64,000 nucleotides of DNA from an uncultured Candidatus Saccharibacteria bacterium (GTDB lineage: Bacteria > Patescibacteriota > Minisyncoccia > Phycocordibacterales > XYD1-FULL-46-19), in NCBI GenBank assembly GCA_964355855.1, contig CAYHFD010000002.1:419-64418 (forward strand), written 5' to 3'. Below, in pieces: positions 12,937 to 53,628 of this stretch. The position numbers were made by a program, and so were the translations under genes. Below the pieces are notes generated by a model. It saw only the letters and a list, made by a program, of their open reading frames with translations, ran no database searches and had not been told where the DNA came from. Position 1 is the first letter of the stretch. The number at the start of each line of letters is the position of its first letter.

Positions 12937-14232
12937 ATGAAAACTTTTATTTATGACGAGTTTGGTCCCGAGGATACTGCGATGATGCAGGCTCTTTATT
13001 CACGAAGCGCGGCTAGTGTCGAAGAACATGCGGAAAAAGTGAAGAAGAGTGGTTCGGGAAAATTTATGGAACGATTTTATGTTGGTTATGGTCACGCTTC
13101 GATCGCGGACTGCGGTAGTACCACTATTTTTGTTGAAGGGGTTAGTATGTTGGTGGCCAAAGCATTGCAGGATTGGCCTTTATATTCGGGACAGGAAACT
13201 AGTTCGCGTTATATTGATTTTGCTAATCAAGAGATAGTGGACCCTCTAGGGACAGCTGAATCTAAAGCCATAATTAAAAATTGGTTGGATTTTTATGTTA
13301 ACAGTCGGGAACCACTAATTGTTTATTTAAAAAAACGATACCCGCGCCGGCCCGTTGAAGATGAAGCGGTTTATGACAAAGCCATTACTTCCCGTTCGTT
13401 TGATGTTTTGCGGGCGTTTTTGCCGGCCGGTGCGACCACTCAACTGTCGTGGCACACTAATTTACGCCAAGCGGCCGACAAGCTGGCGCTCCTTAAATAT
13501 TATCCACTGGAGGAAGTGAAAACCGTGGCCAAAAATATTCATGACAAACTGAAGGAAAAATATCCTAGCAGTTTTTCGCATAAGGAATATGAAGAGCAGG
13601 AAAAATACCGCCAGTCAACGGTGGAAAATTACACATTTTACAAAACCAATATTTGTAATCCTAACTTTGTTTATTCCACTACTATTAACCCAACCGTGCT
13701 TACCCAATACCAAGATGTTTTAAGTCGTCGACCAACCAAAACCAATTTACCTCATTTTCTGACCGAATTGGGGACAATCTCGTTTGAGTTTTTGCTAGAT
13801 TTTGGTTCCTTTCGTGATATCCAACGCCATCGCCATGGTGTTTGTCGGATGCCCCTGGTTACTACTAGTTGCGGGTTTAATGATTGGTATTTAAACCAGT
13901 TGCCAGACGACTTACGTCTTCAAGCTTTTGACCTTATCAAAAAACAAAGTGTGGCCATCGAGACTTTACCAACCACTGTCGAGATAAAGCAATACTATGT
14001 GGCAATGGGTTTTAATGTGTCATGCAAGGTGACTTATGGTTTACCGGCGACAGTTTACACCGTGGAGTTACGTTCGGGTAAGTTGGTGCACCCGTCGCTT
14101 AGACGAGTGGCCCACCAAATGCACTATGGTTTAAAAGCCTTGTTTCCAGATTTAGTTTTGCATTCTGATTTAGAACCAGACGACTGGGATGTTCGACGGG
14201 GATTACAAGATATTAAAGAAAAAACCAACTAA
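12937..14232 (+). CDS. ThyX-like flavin-dependent thymidylate synthase, tandem two-domain form (431 aa)
   Basis: The N-terminal half resembles a ThyX core with the S-RY motif (GHASIADCGS...YSGQETSSRY) but has DWPL in place of RHR. The C-terminal half carries FRDIQRHRH but lacks S-RY. It is flanked by dCMP/dCTP deaminases, glyA and tmk. Confidence 0.5.
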   Translation: MKTFIYDEFGPEDTAMMQALYSRSAASVEEHAEKVKKSGSGKFMERFYVGYGHASIADCGSTTIFVEGVSMLVAKALQDWPLYSGQETSSRYIDFANQEIVDPLGTAESKAIIKNWLDFYVNSREPLIVYLKKRYPRRPVEDEAVYDKAITSRSFDVLRAFLPAGATTQLSWHTNLRQAADKLALLKYYPLEEVKTVAKNIHDKLKEKYPSSFSHKEYEEQEKYRQSTVENYTFYKTNICNPNFVYSTTINPTVLTQYQDVLSRRPTKTNLPHFLTELGTISFEFLLDFGSFRDIQRHRHGVCRMPLVTTSCGFNDWYLNQLPDDLRLQAFDLIKKQSVAIETLPTTVEIKQYYVAMGFNVSCKVTYGLPATVYTVELRSGKLVHPSLRRVAHQMHYGLKALFPDLVLHSDLEPDDWDVRRGLQDIKEKTN

Positions 14233-18880: not shown

Positions 18881-19747
18881 ATGGAGAATATCCTTAATTT
18901 AATCAAAGAAAATTATGTTTTTCCCGTAGACATAAAAGTTGATGAAATTCTGCAACAATCGGGAGGGCGTGTTGTTTATAAGGTGACTTCAGGAGATAAC
19001 CAATATATTCTTAAAATCGCTGATGAGTCTAAAACACAAGAGATGGTAGAAAAAGATACTCAAATTTTTTCATTCCTAAAACAGAATAATTTTAAAAATA
19101 GTTCCGTTCTCTTAGAAACAAAAAATAAAGAGAGATACATTAATACCGAAGGGAAATTTGTTTATGTTTTGGAATATATCGATGGTAAAAATCCAGAAAG
19201 TAGTGTTGCTACATGGGCCACGCTGGGCGAAATAGCTTCTCGGCTACACCATATAGAAGGATATCCCTATAAAACATCTTTTACTTTTGCATCTGAAAAA
19301 CCAAAATTTGTGAAGACAGCCAAGCCGTTGCCTTTTGGAACGGATTATTTAGCTCTAGCTAATCAACTTCCAGATTTGGACGAATTACCCCAATCACTCA
19401 TTCATACTGATATTGGGCCACACAATTCAGTCGAGAAGAGTGATAGACAAATTATTTTGGTGGATTGGGACGATGCTGGTGTTGGAACAAAAATATTAGA
19501 CTTGGGCTTTCCGCTGGTATGCCAGTTTGTTACTCATGAACTCATTTTTAAAGAAAAAGAAGCCTTAGCTTTTTATACTTCCTATCAGTTGAGAGGTGAA
19601 ATAACTGATGAGGAAAAAGATATTTTATTTGACGCGGGCATATTCTTTGCTCTTATGTATCTTCCATATGGTGATATAGACAAAAATTGGGCTAGGATAC
19701 GATTTGCGCTGGACAATAAGGAGAGGATCAGTTCAGTAGTGTTTTAA
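18881..19747 (+). CDS. Phosphotransferase (APH/choline-kinase-like) family protein
   Basis: LIHTDIGPHNSV catalytic-loop-like motif and VDWDDAG (DxD) motif; AT-rich gene. Confidence 0.55.
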   Translation: MENILNLIKENYVFPVDIKVDEILQQSGGRVVYKVTSGDNQYILKIADESKTQEMVEKDTQIFSFLKQNNFKNSSVLLETKNKERYINTEGKFVYVLEYIDGKNPESSVATWATLGEIASRLHHIEGYPYKTSFTFASEKPKFVKTAKPLPFGTDYLALANQLPDLDELPQSLIHTDIGPHNSVEKSDRQIILVDWDDAGVGTKILDLGFPLVCQFVTHELIFKEKEALAFYTSYQLRGEITDEEKDILFDAGIFFALMYLPYGDIDKNWARIRFALDNKERISSVVF

Positions 19748-19785: not shown

Positions 19786-22700
19786 ATGTTAGACGAAAAA
19801 GACCAACCAATCAAGTCCGATATTGCCAAACGAGAGGAAGAAATTCTGCAGTTTTGGCAGGACAATGATATTTTCAAAAAATCATTAGCTAAAAACATTA
19901 CCGGCCCCGCCTCCGCTAAAGCTACGGCGGGCAAGGAGTTTGTTTTTTATGAAGGTCCGCCGACTGCCAATGGCCGGCCCGGTCTTCACCACCTAGAAGC
20001 GCGGGCTTTCAAAGATGCGATTCCGCGCTATAAAACGATGCGGGGTTTCAAAGTAAGTCGACGGGGTGGTTGGGATACCCATGGTTTGCCAGTAGAAATA
20101 GAAACCGAAAAAAAACTGGGATTAAAATCTAAAAAAGACATTGAGAGTTATGGTATAGGTAAATTTAATGAAGAATGTAAAAAAAGTGTCTGGTCTTATG
20201 TCGATGAATGGCGTAGTTTTACCGAACGGATTGGCTATTGGGTAGATTTAGACAACCCATATATTACTTACAAACCCGAGTATATGGAGTCGGTCTGGCA
20301 TATCTTAGCCACGGCTCACAAACGTGATCTTTTATATCAAGACTATCGGGTGGTGCCGTGGTGTACGAGGTGTGGGACAGTTTTATCTAGCCACGAACTG
20401 GCCCAAGGTTATGCCGATGTTAAAGATTTGTCGGTATATGTGAAATTTGAATTGGAAGACGAGCCAAACACTTTTATGTTAGCTTGGACGACCACCCCGT
20501 GGACATTGCCGGGAAATGTAGCGTTGGCGGTTGGGGCAGATATTGATTATGTAAAACTTCGGGCCTTGCCTGAGGCAGAATTTAGTGACAATCACACTGA
20601 ACAAAAACATAAAGATGAATTTATTATTTTAGCGAGGAAAATTTTTGAAAAAATATCACGCCAAGATAGTAATGGGGATTATATTTTGATGGACAAAACT
20701 GAACAAGTCTATAAGCTGGTGACGGAAATTAAAGGCGATAAACTTCTCGGTAAAAAATACAAACCCTTGTGGCCGTTTTTAGCTGATCAGCTATCGGCGA
20801 AGGAAAGAGATAAGTCTTTTCAAGTTTATCCAGCTAGTTTTGTAACTACTGAAGATGGTACAGGAGTGGTGCATACGGCAGTAATGTATGGTCAGGATGA
20901 CTTCGAATTGGGGACGAGAGTGGGCCTACCTAAATATCATATCGTAAATGAAGATGGCACTTTTAAAACAGAGGCAGGATTTTTAGCGGGCCGATTGGTA
21001 AAAGACGAAGCGACTGACGTGGAAATAATTAAAGATTTGGCTGGACGGGAACTTTTATTTAAAAAAGAAAAATATACACATACCTATCCATTTTGTTGGC
21101 GTTGTAAAACTCCACTTATTTATTATGCGCGGGATTCTTGGTATATCCGGATGTCGGCATTGAAGGATGAGTTGGTTAGAGAAAATCAGGACATAAATTG
21201 GGAACCAGCGCATATTAAAGATGGTCGTTTTGGCGAGTGGCTCGCGGGGGTGAAAGATTGGGCCATTTCGCGCGAGCGTTATTGGGGTACGCCACTGCCG
21301 GTGTGGCGGAGTGCTGACAAAAAGGAGATATTGGTGGTTGATTCAATAGAAACTCTTAAAAAACACACCAAAAAGTCTGGTAATAAATATTTTGTGTTAA
21401 GGCACGGCGAAGCTGAACACAATGCTCTTGGGATAATTGATTCAACTGATGCTAATAAATATACTTTGACCGAAACGGGGCGCAAACAAATAGAAACAAC
21501 TGTTGCTGATTTGAAAAATAAAAAAATTGATATTATTTATTCTTCGCCATTTTTTAGAACCAAGGAATCGGCGGAAATTTTGGCGGACAGTTTAAATATC
21601 GCTAAAGCGGAGATAATTTTTGATGACCGGCTTAAAGAATTAGATTTTGGTAGCTTGCACGGCCAAGAATTTTCAGAATTTCTAAAATATGAGAAAGAAA
21701 ATATGTTGTTGTTTTCTGACTTATTGCCAGATGGGGAAAGTTATCTGGACGCCAAAAGACGTTTCGGAAAATTTATTTATGAATTAGAAGAAAAAGTGAA
21801 GGGTAAAAATATCTTGATTGTTACTCATGGGATTGGCGCCGAAGTTTTAGTGCCAATCGCTTTAGCTGCAAACAACGAAGACTCAAAAAAAATATTAGAT
21901 AAAGTGGCACCAAAAGTGGGAGAAGTCAATCAGATTGATTTTGTGCCCCTACCTCATAATAATAATTTTGAGCTGGATTTACATCGGCCGTTTATCGATG
22001 AGGTAAAACTGGTTTCTGATAATGGTACTGAACTATCACGGGTGCCGGAAGTGATGGATGTGTGGTTCGATTCGGGGGCGATGCCTTTTGCCCAAGATCA
22101 TTATCCGTTTGAAAACAAAGAAAAGATTGAAAATGGTGGATATCCAGCCGATTTTATTTCCGAAGCGATTGATCAAACCCGTGGTTGGTTTTACACCTTA
22201 CACGCCGTGGGGGCCCTAATGGGTCGCGGTAAGGCCTATAAAAATGTCATTTGTTTAGGCCATATTTTAGACTCTGCAGGTAAAAAAATGTCCAAGTCGG
22301 TGGGCAATGTGGTCAATCCTTGGGAAATGATTGATAAATATGGTGTTGATGTTTTGCGTTTTTGGATGTATTCAGTCAATCAGCCTGGAGATTCAAAAAA
22401 TTTTGACGAACGGACAGTGGATGAAGTAAACAAAAAGGTTTTTAATCTCCTAAAAAATGTTGTTAATTTTTACGAGATGTTTAAGACGAGGGCAGAACCG
22501 CTTGCTAATTTTTCTAATTTGCCGGCACTCGATCGTTGGGTCGTTGCTAAACTTGCCCAACTAAAAACTGAAATGACCAATAGTCTTGATCGATATGATT
22601 TGTTTTCGGCAACAAGATATTTACGTGAGTTTGTTGGTGATTTGTCACAGTGGTATATTCGGCGGTCACGCGACCGGTTTAAAAATGGTGGCGAGGATGC

Positions 22701-23325
22701 TTTAATAGCCGAAGCGACAACCAGATTTGTTTTACTTGAAATTTCCAAACTGATGGCTCCATTTGCGCCGTTTTTTGCTGAAGACATTTTTAAGAAGTTA
22801 AAAACCGAAAGTGATTCCGAGAGTGTTCATTTGGCAGAGTGGTCAAAATGGCAAGTGGATTTTGATATTGAAAAGACTATAAAAAATATGGATCAAGTGA
22901 GGGAGATCGTTTCGCTTGCTCTCGAGGCAAGGTCTAAAGCCGGGGTTAAGGTACGACAACCCTTGGCTCTACTTACCATTAAAGAGTTGGTAGACAAAGA
23001 CCTTTGGTCAATCATTAAAGATGAAGTTAATGTGAAAAAAATAAAACACAATAGTGAGTTGGCTGAAAAAATATTTTTAGACACTAATTTGACCGAAGAT
23101 TTGAAAGAAGAGGGGAAGGCCCGGGACCTGATGCGCCAGATTCAGGACTTGCGCAAAGAGCGTGGGCTCGCACCGAGTGATCGGATTACTCTCACAATCG
23201 CGACCAACGAAGCGGGCCAGAGCCTAGTAGAAAAATTTCAAACCGAAATTATAAAAACCGTGGGTGCCGACAGCTTATCATTTGAACTTTCTGATAGTGA
23301 AAGTGAATTTAAGATTTCTTTCTAA
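19786..23325 (+). CDS. ileS: Isoleucyl-tRNA synthetase (type 2-like) carrying an inserted histidine-phosphatase (PGAM-like) domain
   Basis: PPTANGRPGLHH (HIGH), WAISRERYWGTPLP, VWFDSG and KMSKS motifs. About 180 aa containing VLRHGEAEHN...TETGRKQ...IVTHGIG are inserted between the WGTPLP and VWFDSG segments (nt ~21355-21900). Confidence 0.85.
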   Translation: MLDEKDQPIKSDIAKREEEILQFWQDNDIFKKSLAKNITGPASAKATAGKEFVFYEGPPTANGRPGLHHLEARAFKDAIPRYKTMRGFKVSRRGGWDTHGLPVEIETEKKLGLKSKKDIESYGIGKFNEECKKSVWSYVDEWRSFTERIGYWVDLDNPYITYKPEYMESVWHILATAHKRDLLYQDYRVVPWCTRCGTVLSSHELAQGYADVKDLSVYVKFELEDEPNTFMLAWTTTPWTLPGNVALAVGADIDYVKLRALPEAEFSDNHTEQKHKDEFIILARKIFEKISRQDSNGDYILMDKTEQVYKLVTEIKGDKLLGKKYKPLWPFLADQLSAKERDKSFQVYPASFVTTEDGTGVVHTAVMYGQDDFELGTRVGLPKYHIVNEDGTFKTEAGFLAGRLVKDEATDVEIIKDLAGRELLFKKEKYTHTYPFCWRCKTPLIYYARDSWYIRMSALKDELVRENQDINWEPAHIKDGRFGEWLAGVKDWAISRERYWGTPLPVWRSADKKEILVVDSIETLKKHTKKSGNKYFVLRHGEAEHNALGIIDSTDANKYTLTETGRKQIETTVADLKNKKIDIIYSSPFFRTKESAEILADSLNIAKAEIIFDDRLKELDFGSLHGQEFSEFLKYEKENMLLFSDLLPDGESYLDAKRRFGKFIYELEEKVKGKNILIVTHGIGAEVLVPIALAANNEDSKKILDKVAPKVGEVNQIDFVPLPHNNNFELDLHRPFIDEVKLVSDNGTELSRVPEVMDVWFDSGAMPFAQDHYPFENKEKIENGGYPADFISEAIDQTRGWFYTLHAVGALMGRGKAYKNVICLGHILDSAGKKMSKSVGNVVNPWEMIDKYGVDVLRFWMYSVNQPGDSKNFDERTVDEVNKKVFNLLKNVVNFYEMFKTRAEPLANFSNLPALDRWVVAKLAQLKTEMTNSLDRYDLFSATRYLREFVGDLSQWYIRRSRDRFKNGGEDALIAEATTRFVLLEISKLMAPFAPFFAEDIFKKLKTESDSESVHLAEWSKWQVDFDIEKTIKNMDQVREIVSLALEARSKAGVKVRQPLALLTIKELVDKDLWSIIKDEVNVKKIKHNSELAEKIFLDTNLTEDLKEEGKARDLMRQIQDLRKERGLAPSDRITLTIATNEAGQSLVEKFQTEIIKTVGADSLSFELSDSESEFKISF

Positions 23326-24051: not shown

Positions 24052-25956
24052 ATGCCCAACGAGGAGAAAATTAATCATTTAGAGGAAGCCGAAAAAAAAC
24101 TCTACCGCCGTGACGTTGTGCCCGAATCACGGCCACGAACGCGGTTGCGTTTAGTGGAGCGAGAAATAAATAAAGATTGGTCCGATGGCTCGTCTTCTTT
24201 AAATAGAAATCAATCAATGAACAGTTCTATTTTGGCCAAAATTCTTATATTTGCCATCATTTTATTTATTGGCACCTTGGGGGTGGCGGCTTTTGTTGTT
24301 TGGCAAGGTGGCAATCAAATTTCTGGTAAAAATATCGACTTTGAAATCAAGGGTCCAGTGGCGGTTAAAGCTGGTGACGAAACCTCGCTCCAAATTCTTA
24401 TTTCCAATCGCAACACAATCGAACTACAAAGTGTCAAACTATTACTAGCCTTTCCAACTGATACCAAGTCGGCCTCAAGTACAGAAATTGATTTAGTTCG
24501 TCTTTCTGAACCCCTAGGCATAATTGATTCAGGTGAGGTTGTAAATAAAACCGTTAAAGCTACTTTTTTTGGCCAAGAAGGAGAGGAAAAACAGGTTAAA
24601 GCTAAAATCGAATACAAAGTTCCTGGGTCAAATGCTTTGTATACTAAAGACACCGACATCTTTTTTTCTATTAGTTCGCCTCCGGTAGGCCTGGTTCTAA
24701 AAACTGTACCCGAAGCGGCTTCCGGCCAAGAGGTCGAGGTAGAAGTCAATATTTCCCCCCGGTCACGCCAGTCGGTAGATAAGGCTTTATTGGTGGTGGA
24801 CTATCCAGCCGGCTTTACCTTTTCTGAATCTAGTGTAACCCCATCTTTTAATAATAATGTTTGGGTTTTACCAGACCTGTCGGCCAATGCCGAGCAAGTT
24901 ATTACTATTAAGGGTATTTTGACTGGCGTAGAAAATGAAAACAAGGCTTTTGTGGCGACAGTTGGGACACAAGATTCTTTGGGCGAAGATACTATTTCTT
25001 TTCCCTATAACCGTACCACCGAAACTATTCATTTGCGTGAAGCTTTTATTGGACTTTCAATTTTAGCCGATGACAGTACCAAACAACCATACATTGCTTT
25101 AGGCGATCGGTCGGTCAAGTTTCAACTTGGCTGGCAAAACAATTTAGATGTAGCGGTGTCTGATGCCGTTATTGAGCTTACTTTTACAAGCAATATTGCC
25201 AATTTGCCAGAAACAGACCCTGGTAAAGGTTTGTATCGCGCCGATCAAAACAAAATTACTTGGACCAAGTCGGTTGAGTCGGCTTTGGCTTCGATTAAAC
25301 CCGGAGAAAAAGGTCTGGTCACTTTTGCTTTGACTACCAAAGCCCTAAATATTTTAGAAACCCAAGCAGTGAGAAATCCCGTAATAAATATTTCAGCTAA
25401 ACTAACCGCCAACCGCAATTCCCCTGGTTTTTCTGGTGAAAAAATTGTTTCCGAAACTAAGTCAGAAGTGAGAGTAAAAACTATGGCGACCTTATCGCAA
25501 GTGCTAAATCGAGCCGGTGGAACTTTTTCTAATACTGGTCCAATACCACCACGGGTTGAACAAGAAACTACCTATACCGTAACTTGGTCGGTGACCAACA
25601 CCTCTAGTCAATTGCGTGATGCCATCGTGAAAACAGTTTTGCCATCTTATATTGAATGGAAAAATATAAAACAGCCGACAGCCGAAGAATTAGTCTTTAA
25701 CCCGACCAGTCGTGAATTGGTTTGGAAATTAGGGCGAGTTCAGCCGGGGGTTATTCCTCGTAGTGTGGCTTTTCAAATTGGACTACTGCCAACCTTGGAT
25801 CAAGTTGGTATAAACCCAGTTTTAATTGATGAAATGAAGTTATCAGCATTTGACACTTTTGCCGAGACAATGGTAGAAGATAAGGTGGTCGCTGTGTCGA
25901 CTAAACAAATCAGTGACCCTGGCTACCAGTTAGACCTTGGGGTGGTAGATCGCTAA
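24052..25956 (+). CDS. Large membrane-anchored extracellular hypothetical protein
   Basis: One N-terminal TM helix (ILIFAIILFIGTLGVAAFVVW) followed by ~550 aa that is predicted beta-rich. Confidence 0.5.
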   Translation: MPNEEKINHLEEAEKKLYRRDVVPESRPRTRLRLVEREINKDWSDGSSSLNRNQSMNSSILAKILIFAIILFIGTLGVAAFVVWQGGNQISGKNIDFEIKGPVAVKAGDETSLQILISNRNTIELQSVKLLLAFPTDTKSASSTEIDLVRLSEPLGIIDSGEVVNKTVKATFFGQEGEEKQVKAKIEYKVPGSNALYTKDTDIFFSISSPPVGLVLKTVPEAASGQEVEVEVNISPRSRQSVDKALLVVDYPAGFTFSESSVTPSFNNNVWVLPDLSANAEQVITIKGILTGVENENKAFVATVGTQDSLGEDTISFPYNRTTETIHLREAFIGLSILADDSTKQPYIALGDRSVKFQLGWQNNLDVAVSDAVIELTFTSNIANLPETDPGKGLYRADQNKITWTKSVESALASIKPGEKGLVTFALTTKALNILETQAVRNPVINISAKLTANRNSPGFSGEKIVSETKSEVRVKTMATLSQVLNRAGGTFSNTGPIPPRVEQETTYTVTWSVTNTSSQLRDAIVKTVLPSYIEWKNIKQPTAEELVFNPTSRELVWKLGRVQPGVIPRSVAFQIGLLPTLDQVGINPVLIDEMKLSAFDTFAETMVEDKVVAVSTKQISDPGYQLDLGVVDR

Positions 25957-48685: not shown

Positions 48686-49524
48686 TTCGTATATAATAGG
48701 CGATGTCAGATATGTTAAATAAAATAAACCATAAAACCAGGCGTAAGAAGTAGCGTGTATTTAGACTGTGCTACATTCTGCCGCCCGGAGGGCGGTTTAT
48801 TTTTTCAGAAAGGCTGGAACATTGAAAATTGAATCCTGTCACGGTATCGACTTTTCCGCCTATAGGATAGGCGGAAGGGGTCTTTTCAAATATCGGAGGC
48901 AGAATAGGTAGAAACATTGTGTTTTGAAAGTAAAGTTAGATAGCAATCAAAAAAGAAAGTGGTTTTTAAATTTCCTAATAGGAAATTAAGAGTATATGGT
49001 GGATGCCTTGACACAAAATGGCGATGAAGGACGCGGCTTGGCGGCGATACGCTTCGGGGAGGTGCCTAGCAACCTTTGATCCGGAGATGTCCGAATGGGG
49101 AAACCCGATTGAGCAAAGCTCAATTACTCGTTTTTTTACGAGAGCTAACCCAGGGAAGTGAAACATCTCAGTACCTGGAGGAATAGAGACTAAATGAACT
49201 TCCTAGTTTGGAGGTAAGTAGCGCAAGCTCCGTGCTTCCAAACTATGAGGTTCTTAGCATTCCCTTAGTAGCGGCGAGCGAACAGGGAGAAGCCCAAACC
49301 CATAAGTTTACTTGTGGGGGTTGTAAGGCACGAACGTAGATTTCTAGGGAAGTCAAAAAATATTTTGTTAGCCGAAGCTGCTGGGAAGCAGCGCCACAGA
49401 AGGTAACGGCCCTGTAGGCGAAAATAAAATATCTTCCTTGTTCGTGTTCTTGAGTACCTCGAGGAACGACAGCCTTGAGGGAATCCGCCGGAACTAACCG
49501 GCAAGGCTAAATACATTTTGTGAT

Positions 49525-49561
<37 letters not shown>

Positions 49562-51247
49562 CAGCCCGATAAGGGCGTTGAAATAGACCTGAAACCATAT
49601 ACTTACAAGGAGTGGGAGCCGAGCACTACAGTGTGCATTATTTTGTGAGTTGAAAAATGATTTGACCGAGCCGTCGATGAAATTGCCGCCCAAGGCGTGG
49701 CGATTTGCAAAGGGTTGAGTCACCAGGGATGAACCATAACTGTCGACGTTATCTCATCCCATCATTTTTCAGTTCACAATTTAAATTGTGCATAGTGTAG
49801 TGCTCGGTGACCGCGTGCCTATTGAAGAATGAGCCAACGAGTTTATGCGTACTGCAGGCTAAGCCCTTCTGGGGTGGAGCCACAGGGAAACCAAGTGTGA
49901 ATAGCGCATTTGTAGTCCGCATAAGACCCGAAGCCAGGTGAGCTTGCCATGGGCAGGATGAACCCCACAGAAATGTGGGGGGAGGTCCGAACCGGTTAGC
50001 CGTGCAATACTATCGGATGACCTGTGGTAGGGAGTGAAAAGCTAATCGAACCTGGTAATAGCTGGTTCTCTCCGAAATATCTTTAGGGGTAGCGTCAGAT
50101 GTTCCTTCTGGGGGTAGAGCACTGGAAGAGTCGAACAGGGAGAAATCTCGTCGATTCTATCAAACTCCGAATACCAGAAACTAAAAGTCTGGCAGTTAGA
50201 CTCCGGGCGCTAAGGTCCGGTGGTCGAAAGGGAAACAGCCCTGATCTCAATCTAAGGTCCCTAAATTCATGCTAAGTGCACTTAAGGAGGTGAAATTTCT
50301 CCGACAATGAGGAGGTTGGCTTAGAAGCAGCCATCCTTTAAAGAAAGCGTAATAGCTCACTCATTCAGAGATCTTGCGCCGCAAATAATCGGGGCTAAGC
50401 ATGGTACCGAAGGTGAGGATGTCATCTATTTTCGAATAGGTGGCGTGGTAGGAGAGCGTTCCAATCCGCGGTGAAGCAGTGTCGTGAGGCACTGTGGAGC
50501 GTTTGGAAGTGAGAATGTTGGCACAAGTAACCGCAAGGCAGGTGAGATCCCTGCCCGCCGAAAGATCAAGGTTTCCTTGGCAATGGTGATCAGCCAAGGG
50601 TTAGTCGGGCCTAAGCCGATGGTGAAAACCGCAGGCGATGGACACACGGTTAATATTCCGTGACTTCTGTAATGTGCGATGGGGAGACGGAGTGCAGTAT
50701 GTCAAGCGTATTATTGGATTTATGTTCGGGCCGTTAGGAAGTACTCTAGGTAAATCCGGAGTACATTATTCCAAGCGGAGCGAAAACGCGGTGGTCTCCA
50801 CCGTGAATTTGACAAAGCGCGCTTCCAAGAAAAGCCTCTAAGCTTCAACATTATAGAAACCGTACCGCAAACCGACACAGGTGATCAGGTCGAGAAGACC
50901 AAGGCGAACGGGTGATTGCTCCTCAAGGAACTCGGCAAAAAAGCGGCCGTAAGTTTGCAATAAGGCCTTCCTAACCCCGCGCAAGCGGGACGGACGCAGC
51001 TAAAGAATCCCTGGCGACTGTTTATCAAAAACACAGCTCCCTGCGAACTCGTAAGAGTATGTATAGGGGGTGACACCTGACCAATGCCCGAAGGTCAAAT
51101 AAGGTGGGTGTGCGCATCACACTGCGTGTGATACTGATATATCGATATATCAAAATTTCGAAATATCAGCATCGTGCTTGGCGTGATGCGTATGCTTGCT
51201 CTATAAGCCCGGGTGAATGTCGGCGATAACTATAATCGTCCTAAGGT

Positions 51248-51509
51248 TCCGTGTTCGATTTTAAAATCGAACACGGAACGGATTGGGGCGATGTATAGCG
51301 AGTGTGATAAACAGAAGACAAAATATACCAATCAAAAGCTACCTCAGCGCGCGGTAACGCGTGCATGATCCACATGGCACGAAGAGACTATACGCCATGC
51401 TCCCTAAAACATTTGCTTTGCAAATGTTCGGGCGAACATTTTGTTTACAAAATGTTTTAGCCAGCAAAAATTAGGGATGAAGATATAGTCCTTATGTGAG
51501 GAATATAAG
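51248..51509 (+). other. Intron-like insertion 1 in the 23S (262 nt, no ORF) at E. coli position L1931 in helix 69
   Basis: Flanks reconstitute CCTAAGGT|AGCGAAATTCC. The 5' exon ends in U, the insert ends in G, and the insert has internal palindromes. Confidence 0.6.
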
Positions 51510-52110
51510 AGCGAAATTCCTTGTCTGGTAAGTTCAGACGTGCACGAATGGTGTAACGACTGGGGAACTGTCTCGAGGAGTAGCCCGGTGAAAATGCAAT
51601 GGGGGTGAAGATGCCCTCTACCTGCAGCTAGACGAAAAGACCCCAGGAGCTTTACTGCAGCTTGATATTGAGCTTACGTTTTTACTGCGTAGCATAGGTG
51701 GGAGACTTTGAAGCGTCGCTTTCGGGTGATGTGGAGTCAACAGTGAAATACCACTCTGTAAAAATGTATGTTCTAACCACGGTGTAAACCATCGTGAGAC
51801 AGTATCTGGTAGGTAGTTTTAGTGGGGCGCTATCCTCCTAAAAAGTAACGGAGGAGTCTATTAAGGTCCTCTAGGCGCGAATGGAAACCGTGCCGATAGT
51901 GTAATGGCATAAGAGGGCTTGACTGCAAGACGTACATGTCAAGCAGATGCGAAAGCAGAGCATAGTGAACCGACGGTCCGCCTTAGAAACGGCCGAAGAT
52001 CAACGGATAAAAGCTACCCTGGGGATAACAGGCTGGTACCGCCCAAGCGTCCATAGCGACGGCGGTGTTCGGCACCTCGATGTCGGCTCATCTTATCCTG
52101 GGGCTGGAGA

Positions 52111-52143
<33 letters not shown>

Positions 52144-52183
52144 AAGATACGCGAGCTGGGTTCAAACCGTACTGAGACTAATT

Positions 52184-52743
52184 TTAAAAAATTGGTAGAA
52201 GTGCAGTTTGAATCCCTTCGAGTTTTTCGTTTATGAAATTAAGTATAGGAACCCCGCCGGCGCGTAAAGCTATGGCGGGTGAGACAACCATAATCACGGC
52301 GGCGTAATGTAGCAATATATTACGAAATGCTGACTTATATCGGTGAAACCCTATTTGACGCGGAAATATGCGGAACTAACGCAGACAAATGCGGAAAAGG
52401 GCAATACCGAGGGAAATCGTGAACTTTATTGAGGAAATTGATCTTTTTTTTGGGGTAGTGTAGTGGGCACATTTCTGGGTTTAATCCCAAGTAAGCTAAT
52501 GACAATCGGGCCTAAAATAGTTTAGATCTTTCAAGGTCTAAGCCGTACGGAAACCGTCACGTTGGCAAGCGAAAAAGAGCGAGTTCAACTTTCGCACCCC
52601 TTATGTTTTTGAAGCAATCGAGATGATTGCTTCTTCAATAAAGTTCACGATACCCGTAGAGACTGAACGTTAGCCAACCGGGCACATGAGAGTACCGGTT
52701 GAAGATACAGTCCGATGCACTTAGTAATAAGTGAAAACATGCG
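52184..52743 (+). other. Intron-like insertion 2 in the 23S (560 nt, no ORF) in the peptidyl-transferase region, at the I-CreI/I-CeuI-type homing site (~E. coli 2593-2597)
   Basis: Flanks reconstitute ...CCGTAC T|GAGACAGGTTGGTCTCCTATC. The 5' exon ends in U and the insert ends in G. Confidence 0.6.
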
Positions 52744-52804
52744 TGAGACAGGTTGGTCTCCTATCTGCTGCAGGCGTTGATACTTGAGAGGATTTGTCTC
52801 TAGT

Positions 52805-53177
52805 AAGAAATTGCTACTTGACGAAGAAATTTGTCATGACAATTTGGCTAATAACGGTGAAGCCTTCATAAATATATCTGGCAACTGGATACTATAATGG
52901 TTCTAGTCCGCCCAATAGTGTATAATGACTTGAGGACCAGATAATTTTTAAGGTAATACCGTGGGAAGTCGCCGAAGCACCATCTTGGTGCTCGGTTGAC
53001 CCCGTAACGACTTGTTTTGAGCTTCATTTTAATGAGGCAAGATAAACGGACTTATACAATGGCGAATCATTTCTTTGAAAATGACGGCTTGTATGGGTAA
53101 TATGCCAACCCTTCCTTCGTTTTACAACGAAAAAGGTGAAGATATAGTCTGTGCTCCTAGAAATAGGGGAATAAACG
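52805..53177 (+). other. Intron-like insertion 3 in the 23S (373 nt, no ORF) inside the sarcin-ricin loop, between ~U2656 and A2657 by my alignment
   Basis: Flanks reconstitute CTCTAGT|ACGAGAGGACC. The 5' exon ends in U and the insert ends in G. Confidence 0.55.
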
Positions 53178-53256
53178 ACGAGAGGACCGAGATGAACTGA
53201 CCTCTGGTCTGCCTGCTGTCCCGCCCGGGGCATCGCAGGGTAGCTATGTCGGGAAT

Positions 53257-53289
<33 letters not shown>

Positions 53290-53518
53290 AACCTCAAGAT
53301 TAGGTATCGTTATGAGACCCGTGAGAGATGATCACGTTGATAGGCACTAGGTGTAAGCACAGCAATGTGTTCAGCCGTGGTGTACTAATTCGTCCATTCC
53401 TATTAGGAAATTTGGAAATCAATCCCAGTTGGAAAGCAAAAATGCTTCCAACGGGGCAAGTTTTTTGATTGTTCCAAAATACAATGTTGTTTCTATATAA
53501 AATAAATTGGGATTATGT

Positions 53519-53628
53519 GTTTTGGCGGTTTGACGCGGTGGTCACACCTCTTACCATTCCGAACAGAGAAGTTAAGCACCGTAGTGGCGATGGTACTTGC
53601 AAAGGGAGAGTAGCTAGCCGCCAGAACA
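53519..53628 (+). rRNA. rrf: 5S rRNA
   Basis: tttggcggtttgacgcggtggtcacacctcttaccattccgaacagagaagttaagcaccgtagtggcgatggtacttgcaaagggagagtagctagccgccag. Confidence 0.85.

Follow-up and report, generated by a model that had tools for sequence, protein, structure and literature searches.

We found that the isoleucyl-tRNA synthetase (IleRS) gene in a 64,000-nt window of patescibacterial DNA (contig CAYHFD010000002.1, positions 419-64,418 of the forward strand, assembly GCA_964355855.1; all coordinates below are those of the window) encodes a synthetase with a histidine phosphatase (HP) domain nested within it. The gene, ileS, lies at 19786..23325 (+) and is a single open reading frame (ORF) of 1179 aa with no interruption. 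Profile searches identified the product as a type-2 IleRS; Pfam assigned tRNA-synt_1, Anticodon_1 and DUF5915 with His_Phos_1 in between, and the ileS model TIGR00392 matched at 864.4 bits (cut-off 621.4) with the match split in two by the insert. A sequence-only reading of this DNA made earlier had described a histidine-phosphatase insertion in a continuous reading frame with the surrounding IleRS motifs intact, and both the frame and the motifs were as described. The class I HIGH signature occurs in its type-2 form, GLHH, at aa 66-69 (19981..19992 (+)), and in an alignment of 120 sequences H69 was invariant while G66 and H68 were each conserved in at least 90%. The threonine-rich motif of the connective peptide 1 (CP1) editing domain, WTTTPWTLPGN (aa 234-244, 20485..20517 (+)), and the KMSKS signature (aa 834-838, 22285..22299 (+)) were invariant or nearly so among the 120 homologues. 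Pfam placed the anticodon-binding and type-2 C-terminal domains at 22531..23316 (+) (Anticodon_1, aa 916-1061; DUF5915/PF19302, aa 1096-1177). The DUF5915 domain stands where type-1 IleRS has a zinc-binding domain, which places the enzyme among the type-2 forms, and the nearest solved structures were those of IleRS2 (8c8w/8c8u) and Thermus IleRS (1ile). The exception models NF000257/NF000258 (MupA/MupB) were not reached (780-783 bits against a cut-off of 1900). Judged by its motifs and profile matches, the host body is an ordinary type-2 isoleucyl-tRNA synthetase that is predicted to be functional in aminoacylation.

The limits of the insert were set by comparison with enzymes that lack it. 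In the window protein the WAISRERYWGTPLPVW motif (aa 492-507) and the EVMDVWFDSG motif (aa 755-764) are separated by 247 aa, close to the ~240 aa estimated previously. Insert-free type-2 IleRSs have ~50-60 aa in this interval, in agreement with the ~60 aa given previously; these are the Priestia megaterium enzyme (8c8w) and P0123, a 956-aa IleRS that is 76% identical to the window protein. When aligned with IleRS2 and Thermus IleRS, query residues 529-727 were unmatched, and the 8c8w chain goes from residue 478 to residue 484. P0123 reads ...SIEELKSHLA-PGSS-LPTNIEGEIDLHRP... in place of the 199 aa of the window protein, and because it is without exactly that segment we placed the inserted His_Phos_1 domain with its junctions at about aa 529-727 (21370..21966 (+), ~199 aa). 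The interval of 21355-21900 (aa 524-705) first assigned to the insert therefore had its location right and was slightly short at the 3' end. The segment is no ordinary IleRS subdomain, as both P0123 and the solved IleRS2 structures lack it. The junctions are very short and conserved (SGNxY and FxPLPHN), with N533 present in 120/120 and H724 in 117/121 sequences and with F719 and P723 also conserved.

The insertion point falls in CP3, the connective-peptide (zinc-knuckle) subdomain, and the phosphatase lies within the knuckle without taking its place. The WAISRERYWGTPLPVW motif and the N-terminal half of CP3 together cover aa 492-528 (21259..21369 (+)), and the C-terminal half together with EVMDVWFDSG covers aa 728-764 (21967..22077 (+)). 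The topology of CP3 differs among IleRSs and the CP3 of the Thermus enzyme has a zinc-binding motif (PMC7191050). Of the 121 aligned homologues, 53 have cysteine pairs at query positions 509/512 and 744/746, on either side of the insert. None of these four cysteines remains in the window lineage, where the first pair is replaced by S509 and K512 (nt 21307-21318) and the second by S744 and N746 (nt 22015-22023). This loss, along with the short and conserved junctions, could be explained if the insert were a non-catalytic structural or regulatory module, for instance a replacement for the zinc knuckle, a dimerisation element or a ligand-sensing modulator of IleRS. However, since those 53 homologues keep the cysteine pairs together with the insert, the phosphatase is no substitute for the knuckle. 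Every catalytic residue was also conserved, in the 120 sequences as well as in copies at other sites of IleRS, which is unexpected of a purely structural domain, and we regard a non-catalytic role as highly improbable.

The inserted segment was assigned to the branch-1 histidine phosphatases by profile, motif and structure. With the full protein as query, PF00300 (His_Phos_1) matched aa 536-699 at an E-value of 1e-30 and 107 bits (cut-off 21.7); the interval given by the sequence-only reading matched at 2.9e-32. The matches scored 107-112 bits and covered profile positions 2-165 of 194. The phosphatase motifs that had been quoted, RHGEAEHN, TETGRKQ, SSPFFRTKESAEIL and IVTHGIG, were all present. 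Alignment of homologues located R539, the catalytic nucleophile H540, G541 and N546 in RHGEAEHN (aa 539-546, 21400..21423 (+)), the second phosphate-binding arginine R591 in an SSPxxRTxET motif (21556..21558 (+)), the predicted general acid/base E618 (21637..21639 (+)) and the second conserved histidine H681 in the THG motif (21826..21828 (+)). R539, H540, R591 and H681 were found in 120/120 insert-bearing homologues, N546 and R659 in 119 each, and position 618 was E in 113 and D in 7 of the 120. AlphaFold2 modelled the full protein with a mean predicted local distance difference test (pLDDT) score of 90.4 and a predicted template modelling (pTM) score of 0.84. The insert region reached 93-97 in this model and 94.7 when modelled by itself, and it has the alpha/beta/alpha fold of the superfamily. 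The domain looks catalytically competent by its residues and phosphatase activity is predicted.

The branch-1 fold proposed earlier thus held, and as a refinement the domain was nearest to PhoE/PspA/CobC-type phosphatases and away from true phosphoglycerate mutases. The structure comparison gave values of 22.9 for 4ij5 (the phosphoserine phosphatase PspA), 22.1 for 6s2q (the glucosyl-3-phosphoglycerate phosphatase GpgP), 21.7 for 9mmh (a riboflavin-pathway phosphatase), 21.3 for 1h2e (PhoE), 20.1 for 6e4b (CobC) and 19.4 for human PGAM1. The insert reached no curated NCBIfam equivalog cut-off, and its substrate is therefore not assignable by homology. The earlier proposal of a phosphorylated nucleotide or metabolite as its target is plausible. 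Among phosphatase equivalogs it scored 83.2 bits against a cut-off of 162.9 for the alpha-ribazole phosphatase CobC (TIGR03162), 63 against 350 for PspA (NF045917) and 37.9 against 74.5 for SixA (TIGR00249). A gap at phosphoglycerate mutase has been reported in the lower glycolysis of Parcubacteria by Jaffe et al. (PMC7304191), and the insert could in principle be this missing cofactor-dependent phosphoglycerate mutase (dPGM) hidden within IleRS. The catalytic set that a mutase requires is present, and the best NCBIfam match of the insert was the short archaeal dPGM model NF038349 (dPGM_arch). The scores against this model (91.8 bits, cut-off 225) and against TIGR01258 (pgm_1; 27.7 bits, cut-off 81.7) nevertheless both fell below cut-off, the domain has ~190 aa as compared to ~245 aa in true dPGMs, and the closest structures were phosphatases. 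The EGK-type loop past E618 looks more like that of PhoE than that of a dPGM. The occurrence of 2-4 divergent HP copies in some of these proteins also misfits a single mutase role. We consider a hidden mutase quite improbable.

The distribution of the architecture was assessed first with the full protein as query. PF00300 was found inside IleRS in 119 of the 120 best matches, which were 53-76% identical to the window protein and whose named sources were Vogel-, Campbell-, Pace- and Parcubacteria; one NCBI protein was 100% identical to it. Genomes were also scanned, one per GTDB species, with two junction-specific peptide patterns derived from a 5-sequence alignment of the junctions, and at least 360 genomes matched. 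The 80 loci retained were all from Patescibacteria and included closed or near-closed genomes (for example the closed RAAC4_OD1_1, 693 kb). Host ORFs at these loci were checked by BLASTP coverage of the three parts, and in 80/80 a single stop-free ORF spanned the two IleRS parts and the insert between them. The architecture is therefore a clade-wide trait of Paceibacteria and not special to the window genome, as the survey of related candidate phyla radiation (CPR) genomes called for by the sequence-only reading now demonstrates. Insert length among homologues was mostly 197-203 aa, and identity to the query averaged 43% across the insert as compared to 62% over the rest of the protein. The ratio of nonsynonymous to synonymous substitution rates (dN/dS) relative to the closest insert-bearing relative was 0.125 in the insert and 0.081 in the body of the protein, and the insert is under purifying selection.

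An assembly chimera, a frameshifted pseudogene or a mis-join would fit one feature of the gene, the lower GC content of the insert as compared to the rest of the gene (0.347 vs 0.418; 0.296 vs ~0.39 at third codon positions). Because the insert is conserved, we take its low GC as a compositional feature and no sign of a chimera. The same join in frame at 80/80 loci from independent genomes, the identical NCBI protein, the continuous frame and the purifying selection all argue against an artefact, which we consider of negligible probability. Profile, structural and comparative evidence concur with the domain acquisition proposed earlier. The AT-rich insert is nonetheless ancient and evolves under purifying selection. 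P0123 (locus L081) is a syntenic IleRS from the metagenome-assembled genome (MAG) of a relative, and in it the insert is precisely absent, with PGSS instead. Because more distant Paceibacteria relatives all have the insert, its lack in P0123 looks like a secondary clean deletion, and this protein is a ready-made natural control.

A search with the insert alone against 1.84 billion representative proteins returned 1056 matches at an E-value of 1e-10 or below, and the long ones that were mapped were all IleRSs. Insertion sites were determined by mapping the flanks of each HP domain on the query together with inspection by eye, in a sample that was non-random. In this sample HP domains occupied four distinct insertion points in IleRS. 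The site used in the window protein, after query aa 528 (site A), was found in 154 proteins from Paceibacteria, and a second one after aa ~742, within the second CP3 hairpin (site A2), in 22 proteins including Peregrinibacteria. A third site, flanked by the MPFA and DQTRGWF motifs at aa ~775-787 (site C), was used alone in 1 protein and otherwise in combination, and a fourth at aa ~900-915, ahead of the anticodon-binding domain (site B), was used alone in 30 proteins; more distant HP-bearing matches of the search that found these relatives included Gracilibacteria and Altimarinota. Sites were combined as C+B (n=9), A+B (n=5) and A+A2 (n=3), one truncated protein carried four tandem HP copies, and 58 long relatives had no HP domain. 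Wherever in IleRS they lay, the HP copies retained the catalytic set, apart from two minor exceptions and a few substitutions of N546. HP copies within a single protein were 26-37% identical to each other, and the multi-copy forms lay on contigs of 268 kb-1.06 Mb in ordinary chromosomal surroundings. A neighbour-joining tree of the HP copies was star-like, which fits independent insertions and old intragenic duplications alike.

Pfam searches also detected unrelated domains nested in IleRS. The P0430 enzyme has a HAD phosphatase and no HP domain, P0453 has a Nudix domain, a serine hydrolase and an HP domain, and P0495 has an AAA_33/Zeta-type P-loop kinase, a DUF559 domain and an HP domain. One or two GNAT domains were found in P0288, P0398 and P0408, some of these enzymes also with HP, and the remaining passengers were an IS200-like Y1 transposase (Y1_Tnp) and DUF559 endonuclease-like domains. 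The architecture of the window enzyme is thus one case of a broader passenger-domain pattern in patescibacterial IleRS. Given the endonuclease-like and transposase-like domains among them, mobile elements may have been a route by which these insertions arose. The full set of passenger-bearing enzymes comprised P0430, P0453, P0495, P0398, P0408, P0410, P0288, P0396, P0406 and P0506, with lengths of up to 1753 aa, and those with a lineage name were Gracilibacteria.

We tentatively favor an explanation in which the protein is bifunctional and the domain is an autonomous phosphomonoesterase with a soluble, probably small-molecule substrate that is carried by IleRS without substrate channelling. 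A complete branch-1 phosphatase of ~199 aa would have been grafted into a hairpin of the peripheral CP3, and as the first and last beta-strands of the domain adjoin, such a loop insertion would leave the host undisturbed. By homology with branch-1 enzymes, H540 would attack the terminal phosphate to form a phospho-histidine intermediate, with the phosphate held by R539, R591, N546 and H681, while E618 would protonate the leaving group and next activate water. IleRS, being abundant, essential and tolerant of insertions, would mainly serve as a carrier securing the expression and location of the domain, and neither its aminoacylation site nor its editing site would channel substrate to the phosphatase. 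The architecture, its broad conservation, the purifying selection, the complete catalytic set and the fold are what the data show, whereas activity, type of substrate and lack of direct chemical coupling are inferred. This explanation was favored because the attachment point varies, because HP copies are numerous and divergent and because the same host holds unrelated passenger domains. The acidity of the domain (median isoelectric point 5.65) and the clean lack of the insert in the syntenic close relative P0123 were further reasons, as was the report that aminoacyl-tRNA synthetases (aaRSs) are preferred insertion hosts (PMC13114784).

Three observations weigh against a domain that is only carried. 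The recurrence of phosphatases, with HP at four sites and the unrelated HAD domain in P0430, could mean selection at IleRS; the long close relatives of the HP clade are all IleRSs, as could be expected if the phosphatase were selected there; and the conserved junctions (N533, H724) together with the high pTM suggest a fixed orientation that a passenger would not need. Such observations bear on the main alternative, somewhat unlikely in our view, in which the phosphatase is functionally coupled to IleRS and acts in cis or nearby on a target linked to the synthetase. Proposed targets are a phosphorylated nucleotide produced or bound by IleRS (for instance Ap4A-type by-products or ADP/AMP), a phosphorylated RNA end, or a phosphorylated residue of IleRS or of a translation protein, in which case the domain would be an antidote to HipA/HipT-type aaRS-targeting kinases. 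Coupling is supported by the repeated capture of phosphatases from two superfamilies, by the occurrence of this HP clade only within IleRS or as free-standing proteins and by rigid conserved junctions (N533, F719, P723, H724), but four differing attachment points are at odds with a precise geometry, an acidic domain is unfavorable for RNA binding, passengers without phosphatase chemistry exist (GNAT, Y1_Tnp, DUF559) and the insert is dispensable in P0123 and in many relatives. To our knowledge no branch-1 HP enzyme has an RNA end as substrate. If coupling were true, it would be a new link of phosphate signalling or metabolite damage control with translation. It is unlikely, in our estimate, that phosphatase activity has been selected specifically at patescibacterial IleRS, with HP and HAD domains captured independently for a target tied to the synthetase. 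Under such selection the domain might remove an inhibitory phosphate placed by a toxin kinase on IleRS or a neighboring translation factor, or might destroy a phosphorylated nucleotide produced or bound by IleRS, and a safeguard or regulatory module of this kind, built into an aaRS, would be new.

The window enzyme was compared to known systems. The Priestia megaterium IleRS2 (8c8u/8c8w; phmmer E-value 7e-233, Foldseek E-value 2e-86) and the Thermus thermophilus IleRS (1ile) share its overall fold and domain order, that is Rossmann catalytic, CP1 editing, CP2, CP3, anticodon-binding and DUF5915-type C-terminal domains, with GxHH and KMSKS. In these enzymes ~6 residues connect the CP3 helix with the second hairpin, whereas the window enzyme has the ~199-aa phosphatase interposed, and they have a CP3 Cys4 zinc site that the window enzyme has lost. 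PspA (4ij5), GpgP (6s2q), the riboflavin-pathway enzyme (9mmh), PhoE (1h2e) and CobC (6e4b) are small branch-1 histidine phosphatases that are 19-25% identical to the insert; all of them are free-standing, unlike the nested domain. Mycobacterial MutT1 (Nudix and HP; 9cxx, 3fjy), the Rv2228c-type RNase H/acid phosphatase (NF005567) and the HP domain of TFIIIC tau55 (2yn0) are end-to-end fusions, in contrast to the nested HP of the window enzyme; none has an aaRS partner, and scores were far below the family cut-offs. A His_Phos fusion with an AlkB-like domain (P0031) was considered as a hint of a nucleic-acid role and rejected, as the AlkB match was weak and the context unrelated. The model NF040702 (ileS_w_GNAT, with an N-acetyltransferase domain) shows that annotation already recognises IleRSs bearing an additional catalytic domain, but the window protein lacks GNAT and scored 324 bits against a cut-off of 1999.

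No curated NCBIfam model of an HP-containing IleRS was matched, and full-text literature searches turned up no paper on a histidine phosphatase inside an aaRS, in line with the earlier reading, to which no aaRS of this architecture was known. The database names of these proteins were 'isoleucine--tRNA ligase' and 'class I tRNA ligase family protein', with fragments named 'probable phosphoglycerate mutase'. The component families are well known, but their nesting, the conservation of this arrangement across the clade and its repeated occurrence at several IleRS sites seem not to have been described. Bacterial aaRSs rarely have additional catalytic domains with no part in editing or tRNA binding, and here an apparently active phosphatase resides in a synthetase that is essential for translation, in hundreds of species belonging to a major uncultured lineage with very small genomes. 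Because the protein is annotated as a tRNA ligase only, a widespread activity is hidden from pathway reconstructions, which touches gaps such as that at phosphoglycerate mutase in Parcubacteria. Patescibacterial IleRS also appears to be a natural scaffold that tolerates insertion at defined loops, useful for protein engineering and for the study of nested-domain origins.

The gene neighborhood, compared across 81 related loci, gave no functional hint for the phosphatase. Conserved neighbors of IleRS were arginyl-tRNA synthetase (ArgRS), RecO, a class II aaRS and a protein of 634 aa. This last protein (24052-25956) lies downstream of IleRS and RecO, has a faint Pfam match to bMG10 (alpha-2-macroglobulin-like) and keeps its position in 65/81 loci. 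In the window a gene for an APH-family (aminoglycoside/choline-kinase-like) phosphotransferase with a GC content of 0.31-0.38 lies at 18881-19747 between ArgRS and IleRS; in the closest relatives IleRS follows ArgRS almost directly. The gene was rejected as a kinase partner of the phosphatase, as it was absent at 81/81 related loci including insert-bearing ones, and it is probably a recent, lineage-specific acquisition.

Elsewhere in the window, a 23S rRNA match in the 48976-53626 region extended over 3383 nt as compared to the 2925-nt model. Sub-threshold group I intron matches at 52282-52734 and 52795-53170 (34.8 and 33 bits; gathering threshold 50) overlapped or followed the 3' end of the 23S match, and a 5S rRNA was located 1.1 kb further on (53521-53626). 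Neither a 16S rRNA nor a tRNA gene was found within the 64 kb, which together suggests an intron-bearing rRNA locus with an unlinked 16S gene. A ThyX-like ORF of 431 aa at 12937-14232 matched Thy1 at residues 16-211 and has ~220 C-terminal residues beyond the match. A homologue of this ORF was present in 1 of the 81 related loci, and L081 has a ThyA-type thymidylate synthase nearby.

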